A stretch of DNA of 56,001 nucleotides, the filler included, from Stramenopiles sp. TOSAG23-2 (lineage: Eukaryota), in the NCBI GenBank assembly GCA_900128395.1. It is 5 parts of 5 records of this genome, joined end to end, with 100 filler letters (N's around TTAATTAATTAA, not from the genome) between each part and the next. Parts side by side here need not be neighbours in the genome. Positions count along the whole stretch, not along the records: positions 22,462 to 33,581 come from LT649962.1; 4 more parts are not named here. One strand, given 5' to 3'. A model generated the notes under the pieces. That model made no database searches. It saw only the letters and a program-made list of their open reading frames with translations, and had not been told where the DNA came from. Below, piece after piece: positions 11,141 to 40,200 of this stretch; positions within the stretch are counted from its first letter, which is position 1, and every line of letters begins with the position of its first letter. The position numbers and the translations under genes were made by a program.

Positions 11141-11240
11141 NNNNNNNNNNNNNNNNNNNNNNNNNNNNNNNNNNNNNNNNNNNNTTAATTAATTAANNNN
11201 NNNNNNNNNNNNNNNNNNNNNNNNNNNNNNNNNNNNNNNN
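11141..11240. other. Artificial contig linker N44-TTAATTAATTAA-N44
   Basis: Identical 100-nt six-frame-stop spacer recurs four times. Confidence 0.98.
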
Positions 11241-21330: not shown

Positions 21331-22361
21331 TCATATGTTCCATCTTTGTTTACATGTATCGAATTTAATATCATACATTCCATCATCGTTTACACATGTT
21401 ACTTCACCACCGTAATATTTTGTCACCCCTTTTACTTTTGCTTCTACACGATCACCACGACGATGTTTTTTTACCAGTAGATGATTTCTTTTTTGGTGAT
21501 TTGCTACGTTTTGAACGACAATCGTCATAATCAGATTCATCATTGTCTTCATCTTTTCCACCTTTGATTTCAGATGTTTTAACTCCACGTTTACGCTCAC
21601 CATCATCGAATTTAATATCATACGTTCCATCATCGTTTACACGTGTTACTTCACCACCGTAATATTTTGTCACCCCTTTTACTTTTGCTTCTACACGATC
21701 ACCACGACGATGTTTTTTTACCAGTAGATGATTTCTTTTTTGGTGATTTGCTACGTTTTGAACGACAATCGTCATAATCAGATTCATCATTGTCTTCATC
21801 TTTTCCACCTTTGATTTCAGATGTTTTAACTCCACGTTTACGCTCACCATCATCAAATTTAATATCATACGTTCCATCATCGTTTACACGTGTTACTTCA
21901 CCACCGTAATATTTTGTCACCCCTTTTACTTTTGCTTCTACACGATCACCACGACGATGTTTTTTTACCAGTAGATGATTTCTTTTTTGGTGATTTGCTA
22001 CGTTTCGAACGACGATCGTCATAATCAGATTCTTCATCTTTTCCACCTTTGATTTCAGATGTTTTAACTCCACGTTTACGCTCACCATCATCGAATTTAA
22101 TATCATACGTTCCATCATCGTTTACACGTGTTACTTCCCCGCCATAATATTTTGTCCACCCTTTTACTTTTGCTTCTACACGATCTCCACGGCGTATTTT
22201 TTTACCAGTAGATGATTTCTTTTTTGGTGATTTGCTACGTTTCGAACGACGATCGTCATAATCAGATTCTTCATCTTTTCCACCTTTGATTTCAGATGTT
22301 TTAACTCCACGTTTACGCTCACCATCATCGAATTTAATATCATACGTTCCATCATCGTTTA
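21331..22361 (-). repeat. Tandem array (~4.3 units of 238-247 nt) encoding Tudor/Agenet-like domains
   Basis: Unit encodes RGDRVEAKVKG(W/V)TKYYGGEVTRVNDDGTYDIKFDDGERKRGV plus a charged linker; equivalent unit positions at 21451, 21698, 21945 and 22183. Confidence 0.88.
21946..22361 (-). CDS. 3' end of a multi-Tudor-domain protein (5' part beyond the contig edge)
   Basis: Open frame through the intact KGWTKYY unit, ending KKTSSW-TGA at the first +1 frameshift. Confidence 0.55.
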
Positions 22362-22461
22362 NNNNNNNNNNNNNNNNNNNNNNNNNNNNNNNNNNNNNNN
22401 NNNNNTTAATTAATTAANNNNNNNNNNNNNNNNNNNNNNNNNNNNNNNNNNNNNNNNNNNN
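22362..22461. other. Artificial contig linker
   Basis: N44-TTAATTAATTAA-N44. Confidence 0.98.
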
Positions 22462-22768
22462 GTAAGTTGTATTCTTGTTCATTCTTTTTAGCACATATAG
22501 CTTCTAAATGCGTAATTTCTGCTAAGGTAGCACCGGTCAATACGGAACCTGTTAATGAAATAAGAATATGTAATAAAACTATAAAACTTCTCATTCGTTT
22601 TAGACGATAAAACATTGGTGGGATAATCGAAATGACTATAAATAAAAAACTTAGCATAGGAAAATTAAGTTTTGAACATGAGCTAACTTGTTCCGATACA
22701 ATATATTGTATAACTGATGATCCAACGATTGCAATGAATAAAAATCCAAAGATTAAAGGTCTGGTCAT
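22462..22768 (-). CDS. Small multi-pass membrane protein, 3'-truncated at contig edge
   Basis: Three hydrophobic segments in about 100 aa. Confidence 0.6.
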
Positions 22769-22800
22769 AATGTTAAGTTATATATTAATATTACATAGGT

Positions 22801-23415
22801 TTATATACTTATTTTTATCCACTCTGGTAAATAATACGTATCTCTATTTACATCTCTTGACAGGTAATTATTTTTAAATTCATCACGATAATATATCGTC
22901 GCTTTGGTGTTCAAATATGCGGCCCACCATGCAAATGTTCCTCTACTAAAAACAATATTGTCACACAAAGTGGCCATTATAGTAAAGTCTACTCGTAAAT
23001 CGGCCTTTGAAATTGTAGTATTTATATTGTAATCTTTGATAAAATCTAATTGTTTTAAAGCTTTTGATGGTTCGTCGCTAATGATAAGAAAATGATTACT
23101 AAAACCGGTTTTTAGTACTCTAGATAGCACCTTTAAATAAAATGCCTTTGGTGGCAAAGTCATTCCCTCATTTTTTCTTGCCATGTCTCCTAAGCGATAA
23201 TGAAAACAAGTCAATTTATCGTATTCGTATTTTAGTTGTTTCTTTAAATATTCTTTAGCTAATGTTTTGTAAGCAGATTGAATCTTAAACATAGATAGAA
23301 TATCTTTTCTGTATTCGTCAAAATAGTTGTAACATTGAAAATACCTTCTAAAACCAATGTGTTTTATATTATCGTATTTTTTATAAAACCTATTATCACA
23401 AAACCCGAATGGGTT
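22801..23415 (-). CDS. Glycosyltransferase family 11 (alpha-1,2-fucosyltransferase-like), 5' end lost at a duplication junction
   Basis: Frame extends upstream of the tracked ATG as ...RRYFQCYNYFDEYRKDILSMF; motifs HYRLGD, FLIISDE, DFTIMATLCD and SRGTFAWWAAYL. Confidence 0.88.
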   Translation of the reverse strand, partial: NPFGFCDNRFYKKYDNIKHIGFRRYFQCYNYFDEYRKDILSMFKIQSAYKTLAKEYLKKQLKYEYDKLTCFHYRLGDMARKNEGMTLPPKAFYLKVLSRVLKTGFSNHFLIISDEPSKALKQLDFIKDYNINTTISKADLRVDFTIMATLCDNIVFSRGTFAWWAAYLNTKATIYYRDEFKNNYLSRDVNRDTYYLPEWIKISI

Positions 23416-23761
23416 TTACATTAGTAATAGTGGATTTGAATACCCAGAACCAACAGAATATTCATGTCACGAATTCAATAACAGCAGATATGATAGGATA
23501 CGAATGGCATTTGTTAGTAAATCCAAAACATTGAAAAACTTAAAACTAGTAGATGTGGGTAAAGATGAAGCTTCAGCTAGTAAGCGAGAAAATTTTTTTG
23601 ATAATAAATTAACTACTATTACTACTACAGAAGAAGGGTCGATTATTGAATTGTTTAGCAATTGTGTTGATAAAAAACAAAAACATTTTCACTCTGGTAT
23701 TATTACATTTAATACAAATAACCTTAAATCACAACCATATTTGATTGATATACCAGCAGAT
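23405..23761 (+). repeat. Exact 357-nt direct copy of 24965-25321
   Basis: Identity from ccgaatgggttttac to taccagcagat; offset 1560 nt. Confidence 0.92.
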
Positions 23762-26512
23762 GAAAAGGAACCCTATTATTGCGATTTTGATGAAAACAAA
23801 AAATTTTCAGAAACTAATCACGGCGGCGGTGTATACAACAATGAAGGACTAATTAAATATTTAAATAAAGACGTACAATTAGCTGCAAAAATAGATGTTT
23901 TGGATGAAATTCAAGAATGTATATGTGCGGATTTCAGTGGCGCAAGTGTTGAAAATTGCAAAGATATATTTTTATGTAATATTAACTGTAACACGATACT
24001 AAAACGAAATCCTAAGTTGTGTCGAATTGATTGGTATCGTCATTTTTGTGCCGCAGAATGTGGTTTGCAAAAGGTTAAAACAGATAAAAAACAAACAAAA
24101 GAATTAGGATTTCCAAATGATTCATACCAATTTACAGTAGAAACAACACTAAAGAAGAACCAAATCCAAGTATTTAGTATAGGACATATTTTAAAAGAAA
24201 ATATAATCAATCCTACAACATTTCAAGTAAAAGAATTTTTGGAAACGTTAGCAAAAGATAACGACATACAAACAAATGGGCAAATAGAAGAATCATTAAT
24301 TCACAAAGATTGGTTTGATATAAATAAATTACAATGTCATACAGTGTCTGATACAACTTTGCAAGCATTTGATGTTGAAAATTTAACAACAGAGTTTATG
24401 CCTTGTCAATTTAGAAAAGGTTGGTCTAAAGCGACGTTGGATGGTGACAACAGGGATTTCATGCGATGTGCTGGTAAGACAATGAATGAACCTAATTTAA
24501 AAAAACAATTCATTCGAAGATTGTTCTACGACGATTATGACAAAGGTTACATCACTGGGAATAGTTTCATTAAAGAATATGCAAGTTTAAAATCAAATAG
24601 ACAACTTATTAAATTTATTGTTTCCGTTAATGAACAAGATATTAGGCATTGTAATTCTATGAATCGAAGAAACAATAAAATATCTTACATTAAACCTAAC
24701 ATAGAAAAGGTACCATTCTGTAAAACTGTCATTTCAAAAACAAAACTAGCAGAGGAAGAGTGTGTCAATTTGGTAGTACCAATGGATTGGAAAAATGATA
24801 TAACAGCTCATAACCCTGTACGACAATCCAATGAAAAAAACCCTAGTATATCAATCTTAGAAAAGGGTGCTTATTGTCGTACAGAAACAGGAAAAGTAGA
24901 TTCAATTCAACAGGACCAAGGCATTTGTTTGCCATACAATTTACCTTCTAAAATGACTACAAAACCGAATGGGTTTTACATTAGTAATAGTGGATTTGAA
25001 TACCCAGAACCAACAGAATATTCATGTCACGAATTCAATAACAGCAGATATGATAGGATACGAATGGCATTTGTTAGTAAATCCAAAACATTGAAAAACT
25101 TAAAACTAGTAGATGTGGGTAAAGATGAAGCTTCAGCTAGTAAGCGAGAAAATTTTTTTGATAATAAATTAACTACTATTACTACTACAGAAGAAGGGTC
25201 GATTATTGAATTGTTTAGCAATTGTGTTGATAAAAAACAAAAACATTTTCACTCTGGTATTATTACATTTAATACAAATAACCTTAAATCACAACCATAT
25301 TTGATTGATATACCAGCAGATACAACCATAGAAGAACCTTTATTTAAGGATTTTGGTTTAAGTAAGGATTTGGAACTTTATACAAAAGTTTGGTTGACAA
25401 AAAATTATGACACCTATAAAAATATAGATAAAAGTGCTGAAATACACATCAATGACTTTACTGACTTTCAAAAGCTATTATTTACAACACATAGCAAACA
25501 AAAAAACGATAATATTCACATCATCAGTGCAGCAGTTTGTAGCAATAGAGACATAAAATATTTACAACAAAAATCAAATTATCAAATCCCAGAATATGTA
25601 TTTGAATGTATCGTTAAAGGTAACAGATGCCAAGAGATTAAAGAAAAAGAAAATATGCATGTAAAGATTGAATATATGAATCAGCAATTATGGTTGATCC
25701 CAAAACATGACTTAATAATAAAGAATCACGGACCAATGCGAGTCTCAAATACATGTGATTCAAAAACCATTGATTATTTATTAGATCTTTTAAATTATAA
25801 GAAAACAGGCATAACTGGTCAAGATTTTTTTCTTGTTTCTAACCAATTATTAAAAAATCAAAAACCAATGCATAAAACCAACATTAAACCTTGCAAATCA
25901 ACAAGTTTGTGCGTAGATAGAAATGCAAACATAAAAAAATCAACCACAGGAACAACGACGTGTAGTATCGATGTTGATATTGGTTATGAAGAAAAACAAT
26001 CCTTGGCATGGGATGCTATCTTTATGGACCCAATATTTTATTTAAGAACATACAAAAATGCTGTCGTACCTTTAAAGTTTGACGTAATCGTATATAAAAT
26101 AAAAAAATGTGGTAATTATAAACAAACAACGAAACGAAGGTTGCAATTATTATCCGATATGGCTACGATAGAATATGGAGGATCTGTTAGCAGCATTTTT
26201 AACATACTTGCTACGATGAATAACACAAAACCACAGATGATATCTTTTGCAGATACTTTGATTGACAATCTACATGAGCAATGGCCATTGGCAACAAATA
26301 CAAACGAAGCTAGGGAACAGTTGTATGAACAAATTACTAAATTGTATACCGAAGATTTGCTATGTCTACATAATAGTTATATATTTTACATTGGGCTAGC
26401 ATTCGTTTTACATTATGTTGTATTGTTAATATTAGCGACGATATTTAGTTGCTTACCAGACACGATTACCGGAAAACCTGTATCTATCTTTTACCAACCA
26501 AACTCCAGATAG
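23504..26512 (+). CDS. Large Cys-containing protein with a C-terminal transmembrane anchor (true 5' end uncertain)
   Basis: 1002-aa ORF; hydrophobic YIFYIGLAFVLHYVVLLILATIF near the C-terminus; KRRL site; the first 86 aa come from the duplicated block. Confidence 0.75.
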   Translation: MAFVSKSKTLKNLKLVDVGKDEASASKRENFFDNKLTTITTTEEGSIIELFSNCVDKKQKHFHSGIITFNTNNLKSQPYLIDIPADEKEPYYCDFDENKKFSETNHGGGVYNNEGLIKYLNKDVQLAAKIDVLDEIQECICADFSGASVENCKDIFLCNINCNTILKRNPKLCRIDWYRHFCAAECGLQKVKTDKKQTKELGFPNDSYQFTVETTLKKNQIQVFSIGHILKENIINPTTFQVKEFLETLAKDNDIQTNGQIEESLIHKDWFDINKLQCHTVSDTTLQAFDVENLTTEFMPCQFRKGWSKATLDGDNRDFMRCAGKTMNEPNLKKQFIRRLFYDDYDKGYITGNSFIKEYASLKSNRQLIKFIVSVNEQDIRHCNSMNRRNNKISYIKPNIEKVPFCKTVISKTKLAEEECVNLVVPMDWKNDITAHNPVRQSNEKNPSISILEKGAYCRTETGKVDSIQQDQGICLPYNLPSKMTTKPNGFYISNSGFEYPEPTEYSCHEFNNSRYDRIRMAFVSKSKTLKNLKLVDVGKDEASASKRENFFDNKLTTITTTEEGSIIELFSNCVDKKQKHFHSGIITFNTNNLKSQPYLIDIPADTTIEEPLFKDFGLSKDLELYTKVWLTKNYDTYKNIDKSAEIHINDFTDFQKLLFTTHSKQKNDNIHIISAAVCSNRDIKYLQQKSNYQIPEYVFECIVKGNRCQEIKEKENMHVKIEYMNQQLWLIPKHDLIIKNHGPMRVSNTCDSKTIDYLLDLLNYKKTGITGQDFFLVSNQLLKNQKPMHKTNIKPCKSTSLCVDRNANIKKSTTGTTTCSIDVDIGYEEKQSLAWDAIFMDPIFYLRTYKNAVVPLKFDVIVYKIKKCGNYKQTTKRRLQLLSDMATIEYGGSVSSIFNILATMNNTKPQMISFADTLIDNLHEQWPLATNTNEAREQLYEQITKLYTEDLLCLHNSYIFYIGLAFVLHYVVLLILATIFSCLPDTITGKPVSIFYQPNSR

Positions 26513-26546
26513 TATATATTATTGGTTTAGTAAAATATAAAACAAT

Positions 26547-27269
26547 ATGGCTACTAAAACTCAACAAATTTTCTTGGACCTCAAAACCAAAATTGATAAA
26601 TTAAACAAAAAAATAGATAAGTTAGAAATAGAAAAACAAAATAACGAACAAAAAATCAAACAAAATTCGATACTAGAAGAAACAGCAATTACAAGATTAT
26701 ATAAAATTGTTAAACAAGATGATAAAAATAATGCAGTAAAAATGAAAGAACTGATACAAGAAACTGCGGATCTATTAACAAAAAGTTTAGAAAAACATGC
26801 CAAAGATCTAATGGGAGCGACACAACTTAAAATGGATTTAAACTCTACCTTAAAAGACAACAAATTAAAGAAAGAGCTGAATAAGAACATCAATACAAGA
26901 GGTAAATTAACAGAGACCAAATTAGATATGCAAGATATAAAAATTGACACCTTAACAACGAATCAGGGCATAAACAACGATACACTTAAAAACCAAATAT
27001 TAAAGGATAAACAACAAATAGAAGATAGAATAGACCAATCCGACAGATCGTATAAACAAATGAATGATTCATTGAAAAGTCAATTAAAGCTATTAGAAGG
27101 TGAAATAATTAATATGCGTGAACTTGTAGACGACGTAATTGCAACAAAAAATACAGCAGAAATAGAGACCGAAGAAGAAGAAACAAAAACAGCAACAAAA
27201 AATAAAGAAGAGATTAAAGTTGGCAAACCGGATGAAGACGATGATGATACATTTGCAAATGAAATTTAA
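26547..27269 (+). CDS. Coiled-coil protein with acidic tail (240 aa)
   Basis: Heptad-like K/E/L/I/Q composition; DEDDDD tail. Confidence 0.75.
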   Translation: MATKTQQIFLDLKTKIDKLNKKIDKLEIEKQNNEQKIKQNSILEETAITRLYKIVKQDDKNNAVKMKELIQETADLLTKSLEKHAKDLMGATQLKMDLNSTLKDNKLKKELNKNINTRGKLTETKLDMQDIKIDTLTTNQGINNDTLKNQILKDKQQIEDRIDQSDRSYKQMNDSLKSQLKLLEGEIINMRELVDDVIATKNTAEIETEEEETKTATKNKEEIKVGKPDEDDDDTFANEI

Positions 27270-27436
27270 ATATGAATATTCTTAATTTTATCGATAACAT
27301 CAATCCAATATTTACAATTTTTAAATGCTTCTTCAGGAGTTACTTTTTTTTCTAGTTTATAATGTTTTAGACATGTATGATATTTCCTTGCTAAAAAAAA
27401 CTCTAATCTAGTCGTAGGCTTTATTGGGTCTGGCAT
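27266..27436 (-). CDS. Small ORF (56 aa) not in the ORF track
   Basis: MPDPIKPTTRLEFFLARKYHTCLKHYKLEKKVTPEEAFKNCKYWIDVIDKIKNIHI*. It exactly fills the gap, overlaps the BAF-like gene end and shares TTAA with the convergent stop. Confidence 0.65.
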   Translation of the reverse strand: MPDPIKPTTRLEFFLARKYHTCLKHYKLEKKVTPEEAFKNCKYWIDVIDKIKNIHI

Positions 27437-27786
27437 TCTGGTATTTTCTCTAGTTCCGTTTCTATACTAACTTGGTTTTCTTGGTTTATAGTAACTTCGT
27501 TAGTTTCATTAGTTTCGGTTTCAGCAGGTTGTTTTAGTTCTGATATAGCACAAAAAATACGATGGCTATTTACATATTTTGGTAAAACGTTTAGTAAATC
27601 ATTATACGAATCTATATTATTTAATAAATCTCCTATTGTATTTATGTTCTTTTTTTTAAAATGTTCATATGTTACTTCCCCAACACCGGGTATTTTTATA
27701 ACACTACTTTCTATTGAATTTTCTGATACAAACTTTTCCAATTGATAAGCACTTAGATGAGATTTTTCTTTACAATATTTCTTCAT
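27421..27786 (-). CDS. Barrier-to-autointegration factor (BAF)-like helix-hairpin-helix DNA-binding protein
   Basis: KFVSENSIESSVIKIPGVGEVTYEHFKKKNINTIGDLL aligns without gaps to the BAF core ([25 protein letters not shown]...); HhH hPGhG motif. Confidence 0.7.
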   Translation of the reverse strand: MKKYCKEKSHLSAYQLEKFVSENSIESSVIKIPGVGEVTYEHFKKKNINTIGDLLNNIDSYNDLLNVLPKYVNSHRIFCAISELKQPAETETNETNEVTINQENQVSIETELEKIPECQTQ

Positions 27787-28470
27787 TCATATGTTTGTAA
27801 GCCTACTATTACGTCTACTATATATTCGTGGCGTAAAATCAAATATTTGTTGATCACAAACCACCGAATGTGGTGTCATCATGTATCGAGATTGGATATG
27901 AAAATTTTGTTTTATAGTATTATCCGTGGCCAAATATTTTCTACACATTGGACATTTATAAATTAATGTAAATTCTGATTCTTTTTGGAAATATTGTTTT
28001 AAGCATTTTTTATGAAACATATGCCCACAACATGTTTTTGTTACAATATCATTTTGTTCATAGTTTGATTGACATATAGGGCATATTTCATCCTTATCTA
28101 ATTCTGATAATTGCTTCTTTGATAATTTAAAACCTTTTAGTTTTGGTTTAATGGAAGCGCGATTATATTTTGATTTTTTTGCAATCATTTGCCATAATTT
28201 ATGAAAATTTAATGGATCTATCAACGGACCACCTTGGGTAGTGATATCGAAAACGACGCGAAAATTTTGTCGTTGATGCTTTAAGCATGGGCATTTTCTA
28301 GAACATTGACTTGACTCAGGATTGTCACATGTAGTTTGATGTAGATCATCGTCGTTTGATAATTCTTGTTCTATTTGATTGGGTGATAATTCTGCTATAG
28401 TGCTTGACAGGATATTATTTCTTCTCCTTCGCGCAGAAATTAACTGATTTGGGACACGTCGGCTTGGCAT
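27787..28470 (-). CDS. RING-H2 (C3H2C3) E3 ligase-like protein
   Basis: CPIC...CGHMFHKKC...CPMCR; basic N-terminus RRRR. Confidence 0.88.
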   Translation of the reverse strand: MPSRRVPNQLISARRRRNNILSSTIAELSPNQIEQELSNDDDLHQTTCDNPESSQCSRKCPCLKHQRQNFRVVFDITTQGGPLIDPLNFHKLWQMIAKKSKYNRASIKPKLKGFKLSKKQLSELDKDEICPICQSNYEQNDIVTKTCCGHMFHKKCLKQYFQKESEFTLIYKCPMCRKYLATDNTIKQNFHIQSRYMMTPHSVVCDQQIFDFTPRIYSRRNSRLTNI

Positions 28471-28525
28471 TTATTTTATAGACTATAATATATACAGATT
28501 CTTCTTGTTAAGACTTTTGTATATA

Positions 28526-29884
28526 ATGATCAACACATCTTTATATAGGTTAACTCATGGAAATCTAGATGACGTACAAGCAGATGTTGAGAAACTGGAG
28601 AATTATTTTCAAAACCGAAGAGAACAAGTTGCTCAAATTACTTTGACACCTAATTTTGGTATTGATTATGATATGACTAGTATGGTAGAAATGATTTTCC
28701 CAGAATTTAAAACACAGGAAATAAAGATTTATAAAGGGTTATTAGTGGAATTGAGAATGAATTACACGATACAACTAACAGATGCCATGTGGTTGTTCCC
28801 GCAATTATATAAAACAATTGGTCTAGTTGAATTACCTATAGGAACAAATTTAGAAACAATGAAGGCGCAAATACGTGATATAAAAGAGTTTGATATTACA
28901 GGGTTTAATACAAAGACAGAAAATACAGAAGAGTATGAAATGAGCCCATTGTATAATAGCATTGGTATTTATATACACAATGACGCCAGCAATGACTGGG
29001 GTACAAGCAACGATAGCTACGTACTTGGATACAACTTGAGCTGTGACAAACTTATTATACACCCATGGAAATACTTATTAGAACAAAATTTAAAAGTACA
29101 TGACTTTTTTCAAAAACTAAATGTCATGAAAATTGAAGGACAAACAATTAAATCAGTCATGAATGAATCGTCAAAAGTTATTGTGGAATTTTTAACTGGG
29201 AAAAGGGAACACATGCTTAATTATATCACAGAAATGGCAAGCAATTGGTTTTATAGAAACGATCAAAACTATTTCTTTTTCAATAATTGTTGTAACATCT
29301 TATCACTTTCACAAAGACCTGTTGCCTTTGAAACATCACCTTTGGCTGGTATACAATTGTATAAAAATGACTGCAAATCCGAACATCCGTATAATTTCTT
29401 GTTTCCAATAAGCAGCAAGACCTACAATGAATTTTATATTTACGACGATTTAAATCTACAACAAAAAGATAGAGTCAAGATGGGGTTCTACTGGGACAGG
29501 AATCAAATCCCATTCAATACACACCTTATGAGAAAATGTGCATCAGTGAATACAGGCGAATGGAAAAGAACAGAACAAACACTACAAGTTGTACCGCAAA
29601 AATTTTACAAGGTATTTTACAATAGGATCAGTACACATAACTTATATGCATCCTTGGCACCAGAAACATTAATACAATTACAACCCGGGGATACTAATGA
29701 GAGTATTTACTTTCCAATGGATTTGAAAAATGTGATTGTAAAAACATTAATAGAAAAATATGACGAATTGCAAAGATATAGAATTATAAATGACCAATAT
29801 TATTGTAATAGGAAAAAAATGTTGAAAATACCAAGACAAGTAGCAAAAATTATATTAAATACATATAATAATAATAATAATTAA
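28526..29884 (+). CDS. Hypothetical 452-aa protein, possible inactive RtcB-fold derivative
   Basis: Long ORF with first ATG at 28526; motif order loosely parallels RtcB (see findings). Confidence 0.7.
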   Translation: MINTSLYRLTHGNLDDVQADVEKLENYFQNRREQVAQITLTPNFGIDYDMTSMVEMIFPEFKTQEIKIYKGLLVELRMNYTIQLTDAMWLFPQLYKTIGLVELPIGTNLETMKAQIRDIKEFDITGFNTKTENTEEYEMSPLYNSIGIYIHNDASNDWGTSNDSYVLGYNLSCDKLIIHPWKYLLEQNLKVHDFFQKLNVMKIEGQTIKSVMNESSKVIVEFLTGKREHMLNYITEMASNWFYRNDQNYFFFNNCCNILSLSQRPVAFETSPLAGIQLYKNDCKSEHPYNFLFPISSKTYNEFYIYDDLNLQQKDRVKMGFYWDRNQIPFNTHLMRKCASVNTGEWKRTEQTLQVVPQKFYKVFYNRISTHNLYASLAPETLIQLQPGDTNESIYFPMDLKNVIVKTLIEKYDELQRYRIINDQYYCNRKKMLKIPRQVAKIILNTYNNNNN

Positions 29885-30864
29885 CGTTTTCTTTTCTTTT
29901 TTTTAGTCGCACTTGTAAAGATGTTTGCCACGTCCGACTCCTCGAATTCAGAGTCGGAGTCGCTGCTACTGCTACCCAAAAGAAGATCAGCGTCCCGTCT
30001 TTCTAAGTTTCTCCCTTGTGCTCTTAATGATCCCCTTCGAAACATCGCTTTTTGATAATCACTTTTCTCGCTGCTATTAAGTTTTCTCATCGCATAAATT
30101 ACAGGCACCTTTGTAGCACCCCCACCTGCTAAACTAACTCTTACTCTGTGTATTCCATCATCTACAAAGAACTCAATGACTTTCCAATATCTCCCATAAG
30201 ATAATAACGGGGAAGATTCATCAGTAGGCGTAACAATATCCCCTACTTTATATGTTGGTACTGTCAATTTCTTTAGCATTTCTTTGGAAATAGCAGCGGA
30301 TGGTTGAAAATCATTACGAATATCTTTGCGGAACCTATCATTCATGTGCAATTGTGCTGAACTTACATATTCATCGTCTTGTACATCTAATTTTTTCATC
30401 ATCCGTAATGCTAAACTATCCGAATATTCATCTGTTTTAAATGGATTTGTAATCTTGTCATCCACATTTGTGACCATATTTGCAGTATATGAATCCCATG
30501 CTTCTCTTTTTCCGGTACCGGTAGCTTTAGGAAGAACAATTTTCGAAGCATCGACACATTCGCGAATGACGTGACTCGTTTGTTGCGATTCATTGTGCAC
30601 TTCTTGATAGGATTTATTTTTTAAGTCTATTAACTTGTTAAATTCATCTGGATAGACGTTTCTGTTACTTTTTGGTTGCCCTATCATACCTTGTTTTGTG
30701 TAAAAATTATATAAATGATTTGCAATATGTTCCCAGTTACCACTTCGTCTATATGCGATATTGATTTTTAATTCCATTTGTCGGATAGCATCTTTGGAAA
30801 TGCTAAATCGTTGGTCTGGGTTTTTACAATTAATGAACGTGAATGTAGAATTTGTAAACGACAT
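29881..30864 (-). CDS. Hypothetical protein with a small SH3/KOW-like barrel and C-terminal NLS
   Basis: YKVGDIV...WKVIEF...RVRV segment; Ser/acidic patch followed by KKKKRKR*. Confidence 0.7.
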   Translation of the reverse strand: MSFTNSTFTFINCKNPDQRFSISKDAIRQMELKINIAYRRSGNWEHIANHLYNFYTKQGMIGQPKSNRNVYPDEFNKLIDLKNKSYQEVHNESQQTSHVIRECVDASKIVLPKATGTGKREAWDSYTANMVTNVDDKITNPFKTDEYSDSLALRMMKKLDVQDDEYVSSAQLHMNDRFRKDIRNDFQPSAAISKEMLKKLTVPTYKVGDIVTPTDESSPLLSYGRYWKVIEFFVDDGIHRVRVSLAGGGATKVPVIYAMRKLNSSEKSDYQKAMFRRGSLRAQGRNLERRDADLLLGSSSSDSDSEFEESDVANIFTSATKKKKRKR

Positions 30865-30911
30865 ATTCTCGTGGTTAGTATTTCGTATTAGTCTATAATA
30901 TAGTAATAAAA

Positions 30912-31676
30912 TTATAAATCCACGCGATGGATCTTAAGTTGTTCGTATTTTCTAGGAAATAAAATAGTTATACCACCATCCATATTGTATCCTGAATCTG
31001 CCGCTGTTCCGGTTCGGAAACCTAAAGTATGAAAGTACGAAGGTTTATGCATTGTTAATGCAAAACTGAAACCCAAAGCACTAAAAACGTGCCATATTGC
31101 ATGCGATGCTAAATCATCTACAAATAAATAAATCGAACATGCAATTATAAACGAAATAACAGTTAACAATGTATCAAAAACGTCAAACTCTCGCCGGTAT
31201 CGAATACCTACAAAAACTGCTGCTAATAGATAAATAGCAACTATAACCATTTTAAATGAACGGCATTCAAAATTGCCATGCTTACAATGTGCTTCGTGTG
31301 AAAAAATAACAATTGCTGCATTTAAAGGGGCTAGTTCCCAAAACATTTTACCAAATGCTAATAAAGCACTTAAACACAACAACGTAAACCAACTATAGGT
31401 AACGTCCATAAACATCCAACCATCGCTATCTAACACGGCACAAACATCATAGGCTTTACAGGTGTGATACAACGAACTGATTAAAAACACTAATAAAATT
31501 AACAAAATAATTTGAGTAGTTTTGTTATAGTAAGACACCATGATTGGTAAAACAAAGGCTGCGTTAGAAAAGACAGACATAAATTTAGCCCATTCTTCGT
31601 CAAAGTAACTTGGTATCGATGCTAACAATAAGAAACCAATTCCAGCGACTGACAACCAAGAACGTAGCTTAGACAT
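30912..31676 (-). CDS. TMEM8/myomaker/PGAP6-like 7-TM CREST-superfamily protein
   Basis: SNAAFVLP, SSLYHTC, MD and HAIWH motifs with about 7-8 hydrophobic helices. Confidence 0.8.
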   Translation of the reverse strand: MSKLRSWLSVAGIGFLLLASIPSYFDEEWAKFMSVFSNAAFVLPIMVSYYNKTTQIILLILLVFLISSLYHTCKAYDVCAVLDSDGWMFMDVTYSWFTLLCLSALLAFGKMFWELAPLNAAIVIFSHEAHCKHGNFECRSFKMVIVAIYLLAAVFVGIRYRREFDVFDTLLTVISFIIACSIYLFVDDLASHAIWHVFSALGFSFALTMHKPSYFHTLGFRTGTAADSGYNMDGGITILFPRKYEQLKIHRVDL

Positions 31677-31720
31677 TATTTGCTTAATAATAATAATTAT
31701 AAATAATATATATACTTATT

Positions 31721-32284
31721 TTAATGATAATTATTTATGCTATATACATCACCTTCATCCATACGAATCATGAAACCAATTATAGTACCACGGGAAAAAT
31801 AATTGTAACCAGTACAAAGAATTTCCATATTAAGAGATTTTGTTACTAGAAATAATTCTAAGTCATCCAACTCACCATATTCCTTTTGAAATGGGTAGAT
31901 ATGGAACGGCATAATATCTGGTCGATTTAAATTAGCTAACTCATCGACGCTATTCTTCCAATCATTTAGTTTTTCCCAGTCGGCATGATATGCATCTGAA
32001 AATATGACATAACCATCTTCTGTTTGTGCCATTTTAGGAGTCTTGTTTGTAAAACTGTTCTTATTGCTACATAAATCATGTAACATCTCCTCCGTTTTCA
32101 TATTACCTTTTCCGTAACCTTCAAACCAAGTATGTCGTCGGGCATAAGCTAACTTACGCAATATTTTTGAAGCATGACGTTTTTCAAAGAATGGTAAAAT
32201 TTTTAAAGATTCTAATGCTTCTAAGGGTGAGTTGTAAACACTCATACATCGTTCGGTTTCACTATAAGTAAAATTATTCTGCAT
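31721..32284 (-). CDS. Hypothetical protein (187 aa)
   Basis: ATG ORF in a tightly packed array; no motif recognised. Confidence 0.7.
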   Translation of the reverse strand: MQNNFTYSETERCMSVYNSPLEALESLKILPFFEKRHASKILRKLAYARRHTWFEGYGKGNMKTEEMLHDLCSNKNSFTNKTPKMAQTEDGYVIFSDAYHADWEKLNDWKNSVDELANLNRPDIMPFHIYPFQKEYGELDDLELFLVTKSLNMEILCTGYNYFSRGTIIGFMIRMDEGDVYSINNYH

Positions 32285-32388
32285 TATAATTTACTTTTAA
32301 ACACTATCGGTGGTTTTGGTTTTGGATCTAAAGGCAAAGGTATTTCTGGTACTGGTATTGGAGCCGGTATGGGTGTTACTTTTAACAT
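32284..32388 (-). CDS. Pro-rich micro-ORF (34 aa) not in the ORF track
   Basis: MLKVTPIPAPIPVPEIPLPLDPKPKPPIVFKSKL*; stop overlaps the next ATG (TAATG); fills the whole spacer. Confidence 0.55.
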   Translation of the reverse strand: MLKVTPIPAPIPVPEIPLPLDPKPKPPIVFKSKL

Positions 32389-32395
32389 TATATTA

Positions 32396-32812
32396 TTAAT
32401 TTGTTTTTACTACTATATCTCGTATCGATAAATACTCTTCGTCTCTCGAATGAATTACATCATTCCAATTTGAAATCATATCACGATAAGTATTTGTAAG
32501 AACCTTTAGTCCTTCTTTTCCTTCATCGCTTAATGTACTAGCATTAGTAGCTTTTTCAAAACTGACATCTAAATAATCCATCAATTTTTTTATTGTTGAA
32601 TAACCATTCTTTTTCGGTTTTTTTTTAATTGATATACGAATTTTGTTATTTTCGTCAACACAACCCATCATATTGCATTGTCTCATTGTTTGTAATAAAG
32701 CATCTTTCGTTTTCTGGATATCCAGTAATTGCTTTTTTCTTTCCAAATTGATTTTTTTTAACGTCTCCCGCTGAGACAACAATTGACTTTGTAAGGTTTT
32801 GATTTTTGTCAT
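32396..32812 (-). CDS. Short coiled-coil basic protein reminiscent of the giant-virus DUF5760-like pattern
   Basis: First ATG at 32812; LKKINLERKKQLLDIQKTKDALLQTMRQCNM...IRISIKKKPKK (helix, Met, short beta, basic). Confidence 0.6.
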   Translation of the reverse strand: MTKIKTLQSQLLSQRETLKKINLERKKQLLDIQKTKDALLQTMRQCNMMGCVDENNKIRISIKKKPKKNGYSTIKKLMDYLDVSFEKATNASTLSDEGKEGLKVLTNTYRDMISNWNDVIHSRDEEYLSIRDIVVKTN

Positions 32813-33437
32813 TCTTATTTGTTTCACTTCCCGTGTATTTAATAAATACCTTGTAACTGCTGCAAATATAGCATTTCTTCTTTGTCATAGTACCACATGC
32901 ATTATGGTAAACATGCGTGCTACAACTACATCTACCGATACAACATTCGTTACCTTGTACAGTTTTATTACATGCATAACAAGTAAATGTATGCCTTTTT
33001 GTAACATAAATTACATTGTTAATTCGACTAGCCTTGTTTTTTGCTGTATGGATACTAGCAAAAATTTCCAATGGTAGAATAGTAATAAGCGTTGGATCTT
33101 CTTTCAAAATAGTTTCAAATGATTGTATAGCGTCTTGTAATTTATTTGGATTTTGTTCTTTAATATAAGTCTTTATAACATACAAAATCTTTGCTATTTC
33201 AAAATGTGATTTTGCTTCTAATAATTTATTTAAAAAGGCAACATAAGAATTTTTTTTATCAAATTTATGTTTCGACATCAATGTCTTGTAATAGACTAAA
33301 GCATTATCATAACTATCGTTATTTATTAAATTTTCTTTACCGAATACCTTTTCAAAGTCAGGAATAGCGAATAAAAGACGTTTATTACTAACGTGATTTT
33401 TCCAATTACGTATATAATAACTTGTATTCTTATTCAT
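32655..33437 (-). CDS. Protein with a RING-variant (C4HC3-like) zinc finger
   Basis: CYAC...CSC..HVYHNAC...CYIC; the 3' end overlaps the next gene by 158 nt. Confidence 0.7.
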   Translation of the reverse strand: MNKNTSYYIRNWKNHVSNKRLLFAIPDFEKVFGKENLINNDSYDNALVYYKTLMSKHKFDKKNSYVAFLNKLLEAKSHFEIAKILYVIKTYIKEQNPNKLQDAIQSFETILKEDPTLITILPLEIFASIHTAKNKASRINNVIYVTKRHTFTCYACNKTVQGNECCIGRCSCSTHVYHNACGTMTKKKCYICSSYKVFIKYTGSETNKNDKNQNLTKSIVVSAGDVKKNQFGKKKAITGYPENERCFITNNETMQYDGLC

Positions 33438-33453
33438 ATCACTATCAGTTCAT

Positions 33454-33581
33454 ATGGTGGTGATTTTAGGCATAGACGTAGGTACAGTTAATTTAGGTTG
33501 GGCAGTCGTAAAAGATGGGAAATTCTATGCAGCGGGCGTAGATTGTCGTACCAGTGCAAGATCTTCTGTTCTTTTATACAT
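33454..33581 (+). CDS. RuvC-like Holliday junction resolvase, N-terminal fragment truncated at contig end (not in the ORF track)
   Basis: MVVILGIDVGTVNLGWAVVKDGK matches the RuvC/poxvirus A22 first motif hhGIDxGxxNhGhuhh. Confidence 0.8.
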
Positions 33582-33681
33582 NNNNNNNNNNNNNNNNNNN
33601 NNNNNNNNNNNNNNNNNNNNNNNNNTTAATTAATTAANNNNNNNNNNNNNNNNNNNNNNNNNNNNNNNNNNNNNNNNNNNN
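33582..33681. other. Artificial contig linker
   Basis: N44-TTAATTAATTAA-N44. Confidence 0.98.
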
Positions 33682-37271: not shown

Positions 37272-40200
37272 ATGATGAAAATGGCATATTTAGTAACTTT
37301 ATTATCGTGTTTAATAATGGTAAATGTGGTATATGGGATAAAGGATCCTCAGTGTAACGAAGGTCAGTTTCTTGCATTTGAAGTACGTGAAAGTGGTCGA
37401 TGTGCAGAGTATATGGAAGACGCAGTGGAATGTGATAATGCAGTTAAAGCAAATAGGCACGCTGGTGTTATAGAAGGTGTTAATCGTGGCTTTGGTGGTA
37501 ATGTAGACGATAACCGGTTTCCTCAAAGTTGCTATGTACAAAATCAGAAAACTTATAATAATGTTCCCCACACAGACACAGATTGTAGCTCCGCAAAGAA
37601 ATGCGTTTGCAAGACAAAGGTATGCACTAAATGCGATTTTGGTTTTAAAGAAGATCCTAGCACGCCGGGACAATGCGTAAAATGTCCAGCGAACACATAT
37701 AAGAATAGACAAGGAAAAAGTGATTGCGAAGCTTGCCCAACAGGAAGCCAACATACAATTCACCCGACTGGTAATGCTTTTTGTAGTAAAAAGTGTGTTG
37801 CTGGTGAAGCATATGGTTACGAAATACGTAGAAGTGGTAAATGTGACGATCCAATAGATACGCTTGAAGAGTGTATGTTAGCGGTTGACATGAACAAGTA
37901 TTTTGGTATCGATAAGGACGCAAAACATTATTCCCAAACAGATAACTACGGTAATAACAACTCCCCAGGTTGTTTCATTCTTGGTAAATACTACGAGTTT
38001 AACACCAACATAGCTTCAACAAAAGACTGTTCAGTTGAAATGCCTTGTGTATGCAAAAAGAAGCAATGCCAAGAATGTCCAAAGAATACATATAGCGAAG
38101 ATGGCTCAAAATGCGTTAGTTGTCCAGACGATAAAAAATATACATTTTCAAATTCTCCTAAAACATCTATCAATGCTTGCACGTCAACACAGCATGCGAC
38201 TGCCCCTTTAAACTGTAACGCTGGTGAAGGTTTTGGTTACAGTATAAAAAATAGTGGTACATGCGAAGAAAAGATTGATAAAACAGACGAATGTGAAGAA
38301 GCTGCGCAATTTAATAAGGACAATGGTATAGATCCTAGGGTTAAGCTTGATCATCCTGAAGTGGGTAGATATCATAACGTACCAACCGGATGCTACCGCT
38401 TTCAAGATATAAATATACCAAAAAAATACAGCTTGAATACAATGGAAACTTCCAATGAATGTGGTGCTAACAATGCAAGATGCATATGTAGAACAAAATC
38501 ATGTACAATCTGTCCATGGAATACATATAGTAGTGGTGGATCTGGCGCAAAATGTTTACGTTGTCCAGATACTAAGCCAACAACGCATTTTCAAAAGGGG
38601 CAGACATCTGTAGAAGCATGTAAAGAGGTACGTTCAAAAACGTGTGAAGAAGGTGAAGGATACACAGGTGATGATATTTATGTTCCGAAGAGCTGTCACC
38701 AATGTTCTGAGGGTACCTATAGTAAAGGTGGTGACTCGAAATGCCTTCAATGCCCTACAAGTAAAGTAATTATAATTCGCGAGCAGTTGCAACGACGTGT
38801 AGATTGTCAACAAAACTGTCCTGCAGGATACGGTTATAGATATACAGGCGAGCATACATGTACTAAATGCAGAGAAAACACTTTTAGTCCTGGCGGTAGA
38901 GAGCAATGTATACCATGCAGAGATGGTTACGAAGCTGAGAAAGGTTCTAGTATATGCAAGCAAGGTGAATTAGCACGCAGCCAAAGTGCAATGAAAGAAT
39001 TATTACAATCAGTATCTGAAAGTGTATCTATGTCGGAAGCATCACGAGCCAAATTACGTCGTAAATTTTCAACGGAAGACACTCGGGCTGAATACTCTAA
39101 AATGAGAAACCTGAAATTACAGGAAGATGAAACTGCTGAACGTGATGATTGTACTCGTCAAAAACAACCATATAAGCATGGTACAGAAAGTGAACAACCA
39201 GGTATGGTTATTTTCTCCGGTGTGCCATTACAAGATGAAGTAGATGACAAAACGTGTTTATATGAAAATCGGGATCGTATCGTACAAGCATTTTGTATTT
39301 TCCGTGATAAATTTGATAAAACATTGAGGCAACGCAATATTCATGTAGCATCGTCAAAAGAATTCTGGCCCAATATATGCTGTCCATCGCCAGACAAAGA
39401 TGATTGTAATAGTACAATATCGGGTATTAAACGTAGCGACATGATACCATTTGCAACTTCACAAGGTGCTCATGCAACGAAAGAAAATTTATTTGGCGAA
39501 ATTCGTGATTTATTAGGCCATCACTCAAAAGGTAGTACACGTAAGGATGGTTATTTGTTACAAGGTATTGAAAACTTGCTAACGAAAGTGAAATCCGATC
39601 ATAGTATTACGACCGAACCGTTATTAAAACGTATGAAAAAACTCTTTGGGAATATTAATTTATGTGGACCACGTATATTTACATCACCGAAAGATGACGA
39701 TATACAGATATGTCAATTGTTTTACCCGTATCCGCACATGATGAATGTATTTTACAAGCATTTTGAAAAATTGTTTGAGACTGAAGATTTGAACAAATTA
39801 AACGCTATTCGTACTATTCGTCGCAGAATGTTAAGCACTACTAAGTATCGTGGTGGTGATGGTGGTAGAGCACAACATAAAAAATATACTAGTACTGGAC
39901 CAAGTCCAAAAAACGCTACTAAGTATGGTAGAGTACAATATATTAAAAAATATGCTAGTACTGGACCAAGTTCAAAATACACTACTAAGTATGGTAGAGC
40001 ACAACATAAAAAATATGCTAGTAGTGGACCAAGTTCAAAATACACTACTAAGTATGGTAGAGTACAATATATTAAAAAATATGCTAGTACTGGACCAAGT
40101 TCAAAATACACTACTAAGTATGGTAGAGCACAACATAAAAAATATGCTAGTAGTGGACCAAGTTCAAAATACACTACTAAGTATGGTAGAGTACAATATA

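Follow-up and report, generated by a model that had tools for sequence, protein, structure and literature searches.

Does the small open reading frame (ORF) studied here encode a viral copy of BAF, as a first-pass annotation had proposed, or a protein of another kind? The window, that is the whole 56-kb stretch of DNA analysed (56,001 nucleotides), was found to consist of five contigs of ~11.1 kb linked through N44-TTAATTAATTAA-N44 spacers. It is therefore not one molecule, and only the gene's own contig is physically linked to the BAF-like gene (Table 1). Genes for kinesin, pyruvate kinase, dynein and ceramidase had been considered as parts of the same virus and were withdrawn when the contig spacers were found.

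The ORF listing of the window gives an ATG start for the 121-aa ORF, and both strings quoted in the first-pass annotation, FVSENSIESSVIKIPGVGEVTYEHFKKKNINTIGDLL and VNSHRIFCAISE, are present in its product. The ORF was confirmed as a real, conserved gene under purifying selection. Near-copies of the protein (86-100% identity), the family clusters described below and a low dN/dS of the folded domain indicate that it is more than a chance reading frame; small counts put the latter ratio at 0.11-0.15 for close relatives and at 0.25 for the comparison with a relative of 48% identity. A 56-aa ORF overlapping the 3′ end of the BAF-like gene (27266-27436, minus strand) was rejected as a gene, since in a collinear contig, L003, only 16 nt separate the stop of the BAF-like gene from the next gene, leaving no room for it. 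A 170-nt contig from an RNA library spans positions 27652-27821 with zero mismatches, which is a weak hint of expression because DNA may occur in RNA libraries. In three of four metatranscriptome runs coverage was confined to parts of the RING gene, and in the fourth it reached the 5′ part of the BAF-like gene; the uncovered gene parts in these runs carry no weight.

Table 1. Features of the BAF-like locus, with positions along the whole window.
Feature	Position	Strand	Basis or remark
Gene's own contig	22462..33581	.	Inside concatenated window, six-frame-stop spacers at its bounds
~1000-aa Cys-rich protein, C-terminal hydrophobic segment	23504..26512	+	Position conserved in L002 (970 aa) and L003 (1106 aa)
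240-aa coiled-coil-like protein, convergent	26547..27269	+	Position conserved in L002 and L003
BAF-like/HhH protein with CaaX box, whole ORF	27421..27786	-	121 aa + stop
C-terminal CaaX box CQTQ, residues 118-121, candidate farnesylation signal	27424..27435	-	Family alignment
Disordered acidic linker, residues 88-117	27436..27525	-	pLDDT < 50
Folded helical domain, residues 1-87	27526..27786	-	Six helices, AlphaFold2
Helix-hairpin-helix hairpin IPGVGEVT, residues 32-39	27670..27693	-	Pfam profiles and family alignment
RING-H2 protein, 227 aa, upstream	27787..28470	-	zf-RING_2; stop codon directly before BAF-like ATG
Conserved 452-aa protein, syntenic block	28526..29884	+	100% identical in L002, 75% in L003
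A22-like (RuvC-type) resolvase N-terminus, cut at contig end	33454..33581	+	L003/L002 comparison

The gene had been described as virus-borne and as adjoining a RING-H2 gene on the same strand, and both statements were upheld. The RING-H2 product matches zf-RING_2 at 42.9 bits (cut-off 27.3), and its gene lies immediately upstream in all three loci with context, abutting in the window and in L002 and overlapping by 4 nt in L003. The viral call rests on these three collinear contigs. L002 carries a 90% identical BAF-like protein, a split Rpb1 and a full-length counterpart of the resolvase that matches Pox_A22 at 30.9 bits (cut-off 22). L003 carries a divergent Rpb1, which matches cellular Pol I, II and III at only 110-160 bits over 760 residues, and an ORF with which the first 29 residues of the resolvase fragment in the window are identical. 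Because its own contig is collinear with contigs bearing resolvase and Rpb1 genes, the BAF-like gene is regarded as viral. Genes on this contig abut or overlap, have no introns and are mostly ORFans among the neighbours. No major capsid protein, DNA polymerase B or packaging ATPase was seen in the DNA examined, and the early-promoter octamer of the Mimiviridae, AAAATTGA, was not enriched (20 matches versus 15.3 ± 3.9 expected).

An exhaustive phmmer search over 1.84 billion representatives returned 20 matches, comprising family members, HhH-repeat proteins and one probable chance match. A profile search delimited a family of 74 clusters, all from marine metagenomes (E ≤ 2.1e-13). Contigs that carry its members reach lengths of up to 311 kb. 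The family is sharply bounded, as the next match follows after a gap at E 0.11, and the first matches beyond it are DinB-type polymerases. Each member stands alone, with a length of 102-169 aa and without a polymerase domain, and two sources label members as ‘DNA polymerase involved in DNA repair’. When longer relatives were sought, only two 571-aa proteins were found (E 3.5e-5), with long precomputed Pfam lists of mostly HhH-type domains and no Y-family catalytic domain. A eukaryote protein set contributed one relative, P0018. Among IMG/VR viral contigs no relative was found with the single protein, with sub-alignments A2 and A3 or with three JGI-sourced members as queries, nor was a relative of the 452-aa neighbour; the pattern pre-filter of these scans is insensitive, which makes the lack of relatives weak evidence. 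In prokaryote genome contigs none was found, and tblastn against phage genomes gave three marginal HhH matches (E 2-10), none of them bridging to BAF. In the full-text papers searched, no giant-virus BAF-like protein or CaaX-bearing HhH protein was found; supplementary annotation tables of giant-virus metagenome papers might list the family as hypothetical.

The HhH motif noted in the first-pass annotation is borne out. The hairpin IPGVGEVT lies between helix 13-22, followed by a helical turn at 28-30, and helix 37-45, and its consensus h-P-G-h-G-x-x-T is the most conserved element of the family, in which P33 and G34 never vary and G36 is kept in at least 90%. Profiles do not show the supposed membership of the BAF family: generic HhH families outrank SAM_BAF in both member counts and E-values. 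Over 50 members, the two families IMS_HHH_1 and HHH_5 were matched by 43 and 41 (best E 2.4e-7), and SAM_BAF by 16; over 18 members the tallies were 14, 12 and 7. The SAM_BAF tallies count matches at E ≤ 0.1, the best being 0.0025. For the window protein itself, SAM_BAF reached 14.8 bits (E 0.041), below the Pfam cut-off of 25 bits, with residues 15-55 aligned on profile positions 6-46 of 88, corresponding to the N-terminal helix and the hairpin. IMS_HHH_1 (18.9 bits) and HHH_5 (12.3 bits) also stayed below their cut-offs of 27 bits, and the divergent member P0013 scored 26.0 and 26.3 bits against these same two cut-offs, which some further members may exceed. Precomputed domain annotation listed IMS_HHH_1 and/or HHH_5 in 24 of the 74 clusters and PF02961 in none of the 74. 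Weak matches were also seen to SAM_CEP-1_C and the RNA polymerase alpha CTD. When the family profile was compared with the PDB, the thumbs of Dpo4 and Dbh led (E 7e-5) and BAF was absent from the best 60 of 89 matches. With the N-terminal 45 residues alone, only FliG and RuvA were matched in the PDB (E 0.5-1.1), with no BAF at E ≤ 10. Bona fide BAF was retrieved neither by phmmer among the 1.84e9 representatives nor by the family profile search.

The predicted structure gives another picture. AlphaFold2 modelled the folded domain with block means of pLDDT of 86-94 across residues 1-80 and helices at 6-9, 13-22, 37-45, 51-57, 61-67 and 74-85; a model of a second member had the same helix pattern. 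Residues K8, S9, F19, P33, G34, L64, N73 and H75 are invariant in the family, and near the invariant K8-S9 pair S12 (window numbering) is near-invariant (at least 90% in alignment A5). In a Foldseek search of the PDB with the window protein, chains of human BAF occupied ranks 1-8 of 264 matches, with a probability of 0.99-1.00, a TM-score of 0.59-0.62 (normalised to BAF) and an rmsd of 3.1-3.4 Å. These alignments cover the whole helical bundle (82-84 columns of 86-89-residue chains) at an identity of 14-21%, and their Foldseek E-values are marginal, about 0.04-0.11. In the replicate with P0013, BAF was found at ranks 7-9 (TM 0.58-0.63), outranked by a mitoribosomal protein and Y-family polymerase thumbs; BAF chains were again the sole small whole-domain matches. 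Neither run gave a PDB match at E ≤ 0.001, and the best match in the BFVD viral structure library had an E-value of 0.3, with nothing informative. Language-model features, which are taken as leads only, ranked BAF clusters first to third for each of the two members examined (0.88-0.89 and 0.86-0.88). The net charge of the domain has a family median of 0 (range −4 to +6) and is +2 in the window protein; such a near-neutral domain is unremarkable for BAF-type backbone binding, yet gives no positive support for it.

The window protein thus does not match a generic HhH domain alone, BAF being its best whole-domain match in the PDB. Of the proposed BAF-like identity, the part that stands is the fold, predicted to be closest to BAF; membership of the BAF family is not supported, with SAM_BAF below threshold and BAF not retrieved by sequence. 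Taken together, the overall predicted fold appears most like BAF, and the sequence appears most like generic HhH DNA-binding modules.

The acidic tail reported for the protein was also recovered, with a net charge of −8 across residues 87-117. This tail ends in a conserved CaaX box, the main feature, which had been overlooked. The pLDDT is below 50 for residues 88-117 and again for residues 119-121, which predicts a flexible, accessible segment ahead of the box. Across the family the linker measures 23-79 residues; its centre is hypervariable with indels, and the ~10 residues preceding the Cys are conserved. The BAF-like proteins of the window and L002 show no difference before residue 86; those that follow lie in the linker, and the last 21 residues are kept except for one I/V change.

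A CaaX box has an aliphatic residue at a2, and a terminal S, M, Q, A or C directs farnesylation, while L or F directs geranylgeranylation. Of 84 family sequences, 76 have a Cys at position −4, as do 16/18 of a smaller set, and the remaining eight of the 84 are apparent fragments or read-through/fused calls. Among small representatives at 50% clustering the box was kept in 14/16. As a baseline, a Cys at −4 occurs in two of the 82 window ORFs of at least 60 aa, and the BAF-like gene is one of these two. The 76 sequences have 32 different boxes, hence it is the pattern that is conserved and not the letters. Position a2 is I, V, M or L in 69 of the 76 and T in six, including the window protein, whose box CQTQ thus has a non-aliphatic Thr. 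The X position is of the farnesyl type in 62/76 (Q 43, S 15, A 2, M 1, C 1), with Q or S in 58/76; the remaining residues are F (4), T (4), V (3), I (2) and N (1). No polybasic or second-Cys signal precedes the box. The conserved box favours a membrane-anchored protein and speaks against one that is freely soluble, such as the BAF decoy that had been envisaged. From models and sequence, the predicted architecture runs from a folded HhH domain through a disordered, acidic linker to a lipid anchor.

The combination of domain, linker and anchor signal points to a protein that would tie DNA to membrane, and not to a simple BAF copy. A farnesylated DNA-to-membrane tether of a giant virus is the best reading of this three-part protein, and we give it about an even chance of being correct. 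For DNA binding, lipidation, location and tethering we infer the following steps. The Cys would be lipidated by the cytosolic farnesyltransferase of the host, and the protein would be retained on endomembranes of the ER or nuclear-envelope type, as expected when no polybasic or second-Cys signal precedes the box. The HhH domain would bind the backbone of dsDNA without sequence specificity. DNA would in this way be tied to a membrane, most plausibly the viral genome to an ER-derived membrane that becomes the inner membrane of the virion or encloses the replication factory. One small protein would then combine the roles of BAF, LEM proteins and farnesylated lamins.

A more specific version of the tether is possible and is held only tentatively. 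In it, the proteins would be a minimal nuclear-envelope-style tether of marine giant viruses, in which a BAF-fold DNA binder, farnesylated by the host, puts membrane around the genome or replication factory of the virus, or loads DNA against the virion inner membrane. The hypervariable acidic linker could set the distance between DNA and membrane or be a DNA-mimicking autoinhibitor, and the turnover of the BAF-like protein could be controlled by the upstream RING ligase.

Several other explanations were weighed against the tether. The protein could be a viral BAF orthologue that is soluble, forms dimers and bridges DNA, compacting or shielding the viral genome or acting as a dominant-negative decoy of host BAF. 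The eight top structural matches, the leading BAF clusters in the feature search and the sub-threshold SAM_BAF match over N-terminal helix and hairpin all fit this proposal, and a counter-measure would make biological sense, since host BAF restricts cytoplasmic poxvirus DNA replication (PMC13443024). It is nevertheless improbable: the near-universal CaaX box and the long linker are foreign to the BAF architecture and imply membrane anchoring, neither sequence searches nor profiles show BAF family membership, and identity within the structural alignments is low. Alternatively, the domain could be a generic HhH module unrelated to BAF, for instance derived from a Y-family thumb, serving viral DNA repair or replication, with the Cys in a non-prenyl role (disulphide or metal). 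The dominance of IMS_HHH_1 and HHH_5 in the Pfam tallies, the Dpo4/Dbh thumbs as best PDB sequence matches, the higher rank of thumbs in the P0013 fold search and the polymerase label used by two sources speak for such an origin. We judge it rather unlikely, as the members stand alone without a polymerase domain, no longer fused relatives were found, and thumb matches at an acceptable rmsd extend over 65-74 columns only, whereas BAF matches the whole domain including two N-terminal helices. A Cys at −4 with an aliphatic a2 and a Q/S end, repeated over 32 boxes, is moreover a prenylation pattern and not one of metal or disulphide sites.

SAM-like and HhH-like folds commonly make protein contacts. 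The protein might accordingly be a prenylated membrane adaptor whose domain contacts proteins and not DNA, possibly recruiting the RING-H2 ligase or being regulated by it at endomembranes. That the canonical hairpin is the most conserved element, and that the nearest families by profile and structure are all DNA-binding modules, makes this unlikely in spite of the near-neutral domain and the weak SAM_CEP-1_C and alpha CTD matches; the RING gene does lie directly upstream in all three loci, but adjacency of genes alone is weak evidence for interaction. A cellular origin of the contig, either from a compact protist genome or as host contamination of the bin, would make the protein a eukaryotic nuclear-envelope factor. 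In favour of this are the make-up of the window, a concatenation from a bin whose other contigs here carry typically cellular genes (kinesin, axonemal dynein light chain, pyruvate kinase), the origin of P0018 from a eukaryote set and the lack of relatives in the IMG/VR scans. The gene's own contig, however, ends in the A22-like resolvase, is collinear with L002 (Pox_A22 above threshold, split Rpb1) and with L003, whose Rpb1 is only distantly similar to cellular polymerases, and has abutting or overlapping, intronless genes and mostly ORFan neighbours, so that a cellular source is very improbable.

To our knowledge, it is poorly understood how giant viruses attach their genome to the internal membrane and recruit the ER to replication factories. 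A conserved viral family that combines a DNA-binding fold with a signal for a lipid anchor that would depend on the host is a concrete candidate for the link between genome and membrane. If the tether is real, the few viral proteins that are clients of host prenylation would be joined by a virus-specific one, and farnesyltransferase inhibitors would be predicted to perturb assembly of these viruses. BAF may have given rise to the family as a very remote viral branch, or the likeness may be convergent and start from a generic HhH module; either answer would be informative on how DNA-membrane tethers arise.

The comparison with BAF was made against BANF1 (PF02961, SAM_BAF; PDB 1CI4, 2EZX, 6GHD, 7ABM and 7Z21). 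BAF is 89 residues long and an obligate homodimer, with the LEM-binding groove formed by the dimer interface; it binds dsDNA non-specifically through an HhH motif and bridges DNA (PMC13443024). The same source has BAF linking chromatin to the nuclear membrane indirectly, via LEM proteins and lamins, under an N-terminal phospho-switch (Ser-4, Thr-2 and Thr-3) operated by VRK or B1 kinases (PMC13443024). According to the models, the family shares with BAF a small all-helical domain of equal size with the HhH hairpin at the same place. It differs in having the acidic linker and the CaaX box, both absent from BAF, and, from Pfam alignment offsets, ~9 extra N-terminal residues with the invariant K-S motif.

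Generic HhH modules, represented by HHH_5 (PF14520) and IMS_HHH_1 (PF21999; Dpo4, Dbh, Pol iota), are closest by sequence profile and have the hairpin consensus in common with the family. Three helices around the hairpin superpose on the Y-family thumb with an rmsd of 3-5 Å. The two extra N-terminal helices and the long last helix of the family lie outside the thumb matches, and the family proteins are stand-alone, not part of a polymerase, and carry a lipid-anchor signal.

B-type lamins and prelamin A are farnesylated, anchored through a CaaX box, and hold DNA/chromatin at an endomembrane. A CaaX anchor and DNA at an endomembrane would be the points of likeness, as a functional analogy; lamins have neither a sequence nor a structural relationship to the family. 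The family protein lacks the coiled-coil rod and Ig fold, is about one-fifth the size, and its contact with DNA would be direct, via the HhH domain.

Among viruses, hepatitis delta's large antigen and herpesvirus US2 are prenylated by the host, and Rab-like and DnaJ-like (-CAQQ) proteins of Mimivirus are predicted to be, the -CAQQ box being farnesyltransferase-only (PMC1847700). The family would share with them the dependence on host CaaX machinery, which is predicted here, and the DnaJ-like box ends in Q, as does CQTQ of the window protein. The Mimivirus candidates are homologues of prenylated host proteins, whereas no prenylated cellular counterpart is known for this family, which pairs its anchor signal with a DNA-binding-type fold.

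Four spacers, each N44-TTAATTAATTAA-N44, interrupt the window; the 12-mer at their centre is a stop in all six frames. The window is thus made up of five contigs, each about 11.1 kb long, that come from a binned metagenome assembly and were joined artificially, and gene neighbourhoods across the spacer positions are not real. Only one contig is physically linked to the BAF-like gene. The others carry kinesin, pyruvate kinase, pirin, collagen-like, enoyl-CoA hydratase, axonemal dynein light chain and ceramidase genes, which are tied to the genome by binning alone and were therefore not used as evidence. The axonemal dynein light chain gene either got into the bin as host contamination or was captured, unusually, by the virus; the overlapping Tudor-like ORFs either arose by tandem duplication or belong to one two-Tudor gene with a frameshift. 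The split acid-ceramidase/NAAA-like gene, in which the second ORF, compared with the family, presumably picks up about 65 residues further on, looks like a decaying gene with a deletion and not like an intron.

Coordinates of features in the window and in the metagenome loci L002 and L003
Sequence	Position (strand)	Feature	Observation
Window	1165-7566(-), 9203-10915(-)	2133-aa protein with N-terminal kinesin motor (E 1.9e-115); complete pyruvate kinase (E 1.9e-138)	CRAL/TRIO protein on the same contig
Window	11141-11240, 22362-22461, 33582-33681, 44794-44893	Spacers	
Window	21331-22118(-)	ORFs overlapping in different frames	Tudor-like domain in each
Window	22462-33581	Contig of the BAF-like gene	
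Window	23405-23761, 24965-25321	Exact 357-nt duplication	No mismatches
Window	27266-27436(-)	56-aa ORF	Overlaps 3' end of BAF-like gene and convergent neighbour
Window	27421-27786(-)	BAF-like gene	121 aa, ATG start
Window	27652-27821	RNA-library contig	170 nt, zero mismatches
Window	27786/27787	RING/BAF-like junction	Same frame, parted by TGA alone
Window	27787-28470(-)	RING-H2 gene	227 aa
Window	33454-33581	A22-like RuvC-type resolvase	First 42 residues, at contig end
Window	37272-43604(+)	2110-aa protein, separate contig	Collagen triple-helix and ephrin-receptor-like Cys-rich repeats
Window	50586-51299(-)	Full-length axonemal dynein light chain	Ax_dynein_light, E 1.6e-78; linked to the virus by binning only
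Window	52149-53538(-)	Acid-ceramidase/NAAA-like gene	Two ORFs 38 nt apart; the first stops just past the catalytic-Cys motif
Window	54487-55329	Alkaline ceramidase	Same contig as split acid-ceramidase/NAAA-like gene
L002	6263/6264	RING/BAF-like junction	Same frame, parted by TGA alone
L002	13510-16632(-)	Split viral Rpb1	78-nt gap between ORFs
L003	5270-5273	RING/BAF-like overlap (ATGA)	Frames differ
L003	13359-15641(-)	Viral Rpb1	Ends in a non-canonical proline-rich tail, three copies of a ~18-residue repeat, where the cellular heptad CTD would be

Both amino-acid strings quoted in the first-pass annotation lie inside the BAF-like ORF of the window's ORF listing. The acidic tail described there carries a net charge of −8 across the 31 residues beyond residue 86, and the same-strand gene said to abut the ORF ends in a TGA immediately before the BAF-like ATG and encodes a RING-H2 finger (zf-RING_2 42.9 bits, cut-off 27.3). 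What had been observed is thus confirmed. A RING-H2 gene lies directly upstream in all three loci with context, the window and the two metagenome loci with relatives of the gene (L002 and L003), which suggests a possible co-regulation or control of turnover of the BAF-like protein. Since the frames differ in L003, a read-through RING/BAF-like fusion is not conserved, though the tight coupling is. As such libraries can contain DNA, the RNA-library contig spanning the junction points only weakly to expression. The 56-aa ORF is probably no gene; L003 has no room for it.

The claim that the gene is virus-encoded was borne out by its surroundings. The contig breaks off within an A22-like resolvase and is collinear over an eight-gene block with L002 (source contig 114 kb) and L003, whose BAF-like proteins are 90 % and 48 % identical to that of the window. 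The order is a 260-aa protein, a DUF3522-like membrane protein, a protein beginning MSFTNSTFTFINC, a 450-aa protein, the RING gene, the BAF-like gene, a coiled-coil protein and a Cys-rich protein of about 1000 aa with a C-terminal hydrophobic segment. The full-length resolvase of L002 reaches 30.9 bits with Pox_A22 (cut-off 22), and Rpb1 is present there as two ORFs. Against the largest subunits of cellular Pol I, II and III, the L003 Rpb1 fragment scores 110-160 bits over 760 residues, about equally far from each; a cellular nuclear polymerase would reach far higher scores. Genes lie end to end or share 4 nt, no introns were seen and the majority have no Pfam family. From the resolvase, the collinearity, the divergent Rpb1 and the gene packing, we conclude that the contig belongs to a giant virus (Nucleocytoviricota). 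No capsid, PolB or packaging ATPase genes were present in the DNA examined around the gene and its collinear loci, and IMG/VR scans found neither the BAF-like family nor its 452-aa neighbour. Runs from four studies besides those flagged as possible sources contained at least 60 % of the sampled words of the locus; nearly all of these runs were labelled marine metagenome.

The 357-nt duplication, an assembly artefact or a very recent event, makes the N-terminus of a 1002-aa ORF repeat its own residues 521-606; the L003 homologue begins with a signal-peptide-like segment instead. Between the homologue of this ORF and a GT11 gene, L002 has genes for a 156-aa protein, a patatin and a 149-aa protein; all three are missing from the window.

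Of 1.84 billion representatives searched exhaustively with phmmer, 20 matched at E ≤ 1e-3: 16 small proteins (102-169 aa), three off-family repeat proteins and P0018, a 570-aa protein from a eukaryote set. P0018 has the family domain near its N-terminus (residues ~51-140), followed by a long region including a Cys/His-rich C-terminal part without Pfam match. It lacks a CaaX box and could be either a relative from a cellular genome or a viral gene that became endogenised. When 5.8 billion sequences were searched with the family profile, 74 clusters came out at E ≤ 2.1e-13; the next matches, DinB-type polymerases, start at E 0.11, so that by sequence the family is discrete. Its members lie on contigs of up to 311 kb, and a search for genuinely fused longer forms found none. 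Invariant in the 18-sequence alignment are K8, S9, F19, P33, G34, L64, N73 and H75. Over residues 1-87, dN/dS was 0.11-0.15 among three close copies and 0.25 against L003, from small counts. Between the window and L002 the 452-aa neighbour is 100 % identical, and differences in the BAF-like protein are confined to the part starting at residue 86, where a low-complexity stretch of E, T and N shows substitutions and indels; the final 21 residues are the same but for one I/V change.

On whether the domain is BAF or a generic HhH, the alternatives posed with the first-pass annotation, sequence profiles, predicted structure and language-model features disagree. Profiles favour a generic HhH. All Pfam matches of the window protein's domain were below their cut-offs, with IMS_HHH_1 (E 0.0021, 18.9 bits) ahead of SAM_BAF (E 0.041, 14.8 bits, cut-off 25). 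Among 50 members, IMS_HHH_1 matched 43 (best E 4.9e-7), HHH_5 41 (2.4e-7), DNA_pol_lambd_f 28 (1.5e-5), IMS_HHH 22 (0.0025) and SAM_BAF 16 (0.0025), and precomputed domains listed HHH_5 and/or IMS_HHH_1 in 24 of the 74 clusters and SAM_BAF in none. Against the PDB, the family profile best matched the thumbs of Dpo4 and Dbh (E 7e-5), with Pol iota, Pol beta and FAAP24 next; BAF was absent from the best 60 of 89 matches, and was not found in the PDB with the N-terminal 45 residues alone.

The predicted structure, on the other hand, favours BAF as whole-domain analogue. AlphaFold2, run on the 18-sequence alignment, gave six helices, with pLDDT block means of 86-94 for residues 1-80, and predicted residue 88 onward to be disordered. 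In Foldseek against the PDB, ranks 1-8 were BAF chains (6GHD, 7ABM, 7Z21, 2EZX, 1CI4; probability 0.99-1.00, TM 0.59-0.62 normalised to BAF, rmsd 3.1-3.4 Å, 17-18 % identity), covering 82-84 columns of 86-89-residue chains at E-values of 0.044-0.11, with no match at 0.001; Y-family thumbs followed with 65-74 columns. For P0013, a divergent member about 31 % identical to the window protein and modelled as fold replicate from a 50-sequence alignment, a kinetoplastid mitoribosomal protein ranked first and Y-family thumbs second to sixth (E 0.026-0.073), several of the matches above BAF having an rmsd >10 Å. BAF chains took ranks 7-9 (E 0.11-0.12, TM 0.58-0.63, 84-96 columns), as well as 20 and 46; here too, BAF alone among small proteins is matched along the full domain, yet it is not clearly ahead. 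The top three language-model matches were BAF-annotated clusters for both proteins (0.88-0.89 for the window protein, 0.86-0.88 for the replicate; 120-131 shared features), under the tool's 0.9 mark and thus leads only. As modelled, the domain is a BAF-like fold around a canonical HhH. BAF family membership is not demonstrated, and the chances of a common ancestry specifically with BAF are about even.

A feature not mentioned in the first-pass annotation is the Cys-x-x-x terminus of the tail. Cys at −4 was found in 16 of the 18 sequences of the first alignment and in 76 of 84 family sequences (the 74 clusters and 10 further phmmer representatives); the eight without it seem to be truncated, to result from read-through or fused calls, or to have a frameshifted end. 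Among the window's 82 ORFs of at least 60 aa only two have it, the BAF-like gene being one. The family uses 32 different boxes, with I (44), V (16), M (7), T (6), L (2) or S (1) as second 'a' and Q (43), S (15), F and T (4 each), V (3), I and A (2 each), M, N or C (1 each) as last residue. A textbook CaaX farnesylation signal has Cys at −4, an aliphatic a2 and Q or S at the end, which the family's boxes match. Prenyltransferases also require a disordered segment before the box, and one is predicted here by AlphaFold2. The residues immediately before the box are acidic or neutral, with neither a polybasic run nor a second Cys. By analogy with Ras-type targeting, a farnesylated protein lacking both would be expected to remain on ER and nuclear-envelope membranes and not to reach the plasma membrane. 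A -CAQQ box is a substrate of farnesyltransferase only (PMC1847700).

The gene product is most likely a membrane-anchored tether. Cys118 would be lipidated by the host farnesyltransferase, placing the protein on an ER-type membrane, and the HhH domain, 23-79 disordered residues from the anchor, would bind the dsDNA backbone and so tie DNA to the membrane. This could attach the genome to ER-derived membrane destined to become the virion's inner membrane, or recruit membrane around the replication factory. The large Cys-rich membrane protein, the coiled-coil protein and the multi-pass membrane protein nearby would fit a structural block. Of the original interpretation, which is partly supported, the viral gene and the BAF-like fold are retained; BAF membership is not demonstrated, and a role as soluble bridging factor or decoy is less likely than that of a tether.

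Among viral proteins, prenylation was by 2007 known or predicted for the HDV large antigen, viral Ras variants, a herpesvirus US2 protein, two Mimivirus homologues of host prenylated proteins and avipoxvirus ankyrin proteins (PMC1847700); no virus-specific family that pairs a DNA-binding-type domain with a conserved CaaX box is listed there. A full-text literature search likewise found none described, although supplementary tables, which lay outside it, might list the family as hypothetical. BAF itself is an 89-residue homodimer in which each monomer binds dsDNA through its HhH, the dimer groove binds LEM proteins, and phosphorylation of Ser-4 by VRK or B1 kinases releases DNA (PMC13443024). 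The viral family has the domain size, predicted fold and HhH in common with BAF, but carries, in addition, roughly nine N-terminal residues containing an invariant K-S pair, a long acidic linker and a putative lipid anchor.
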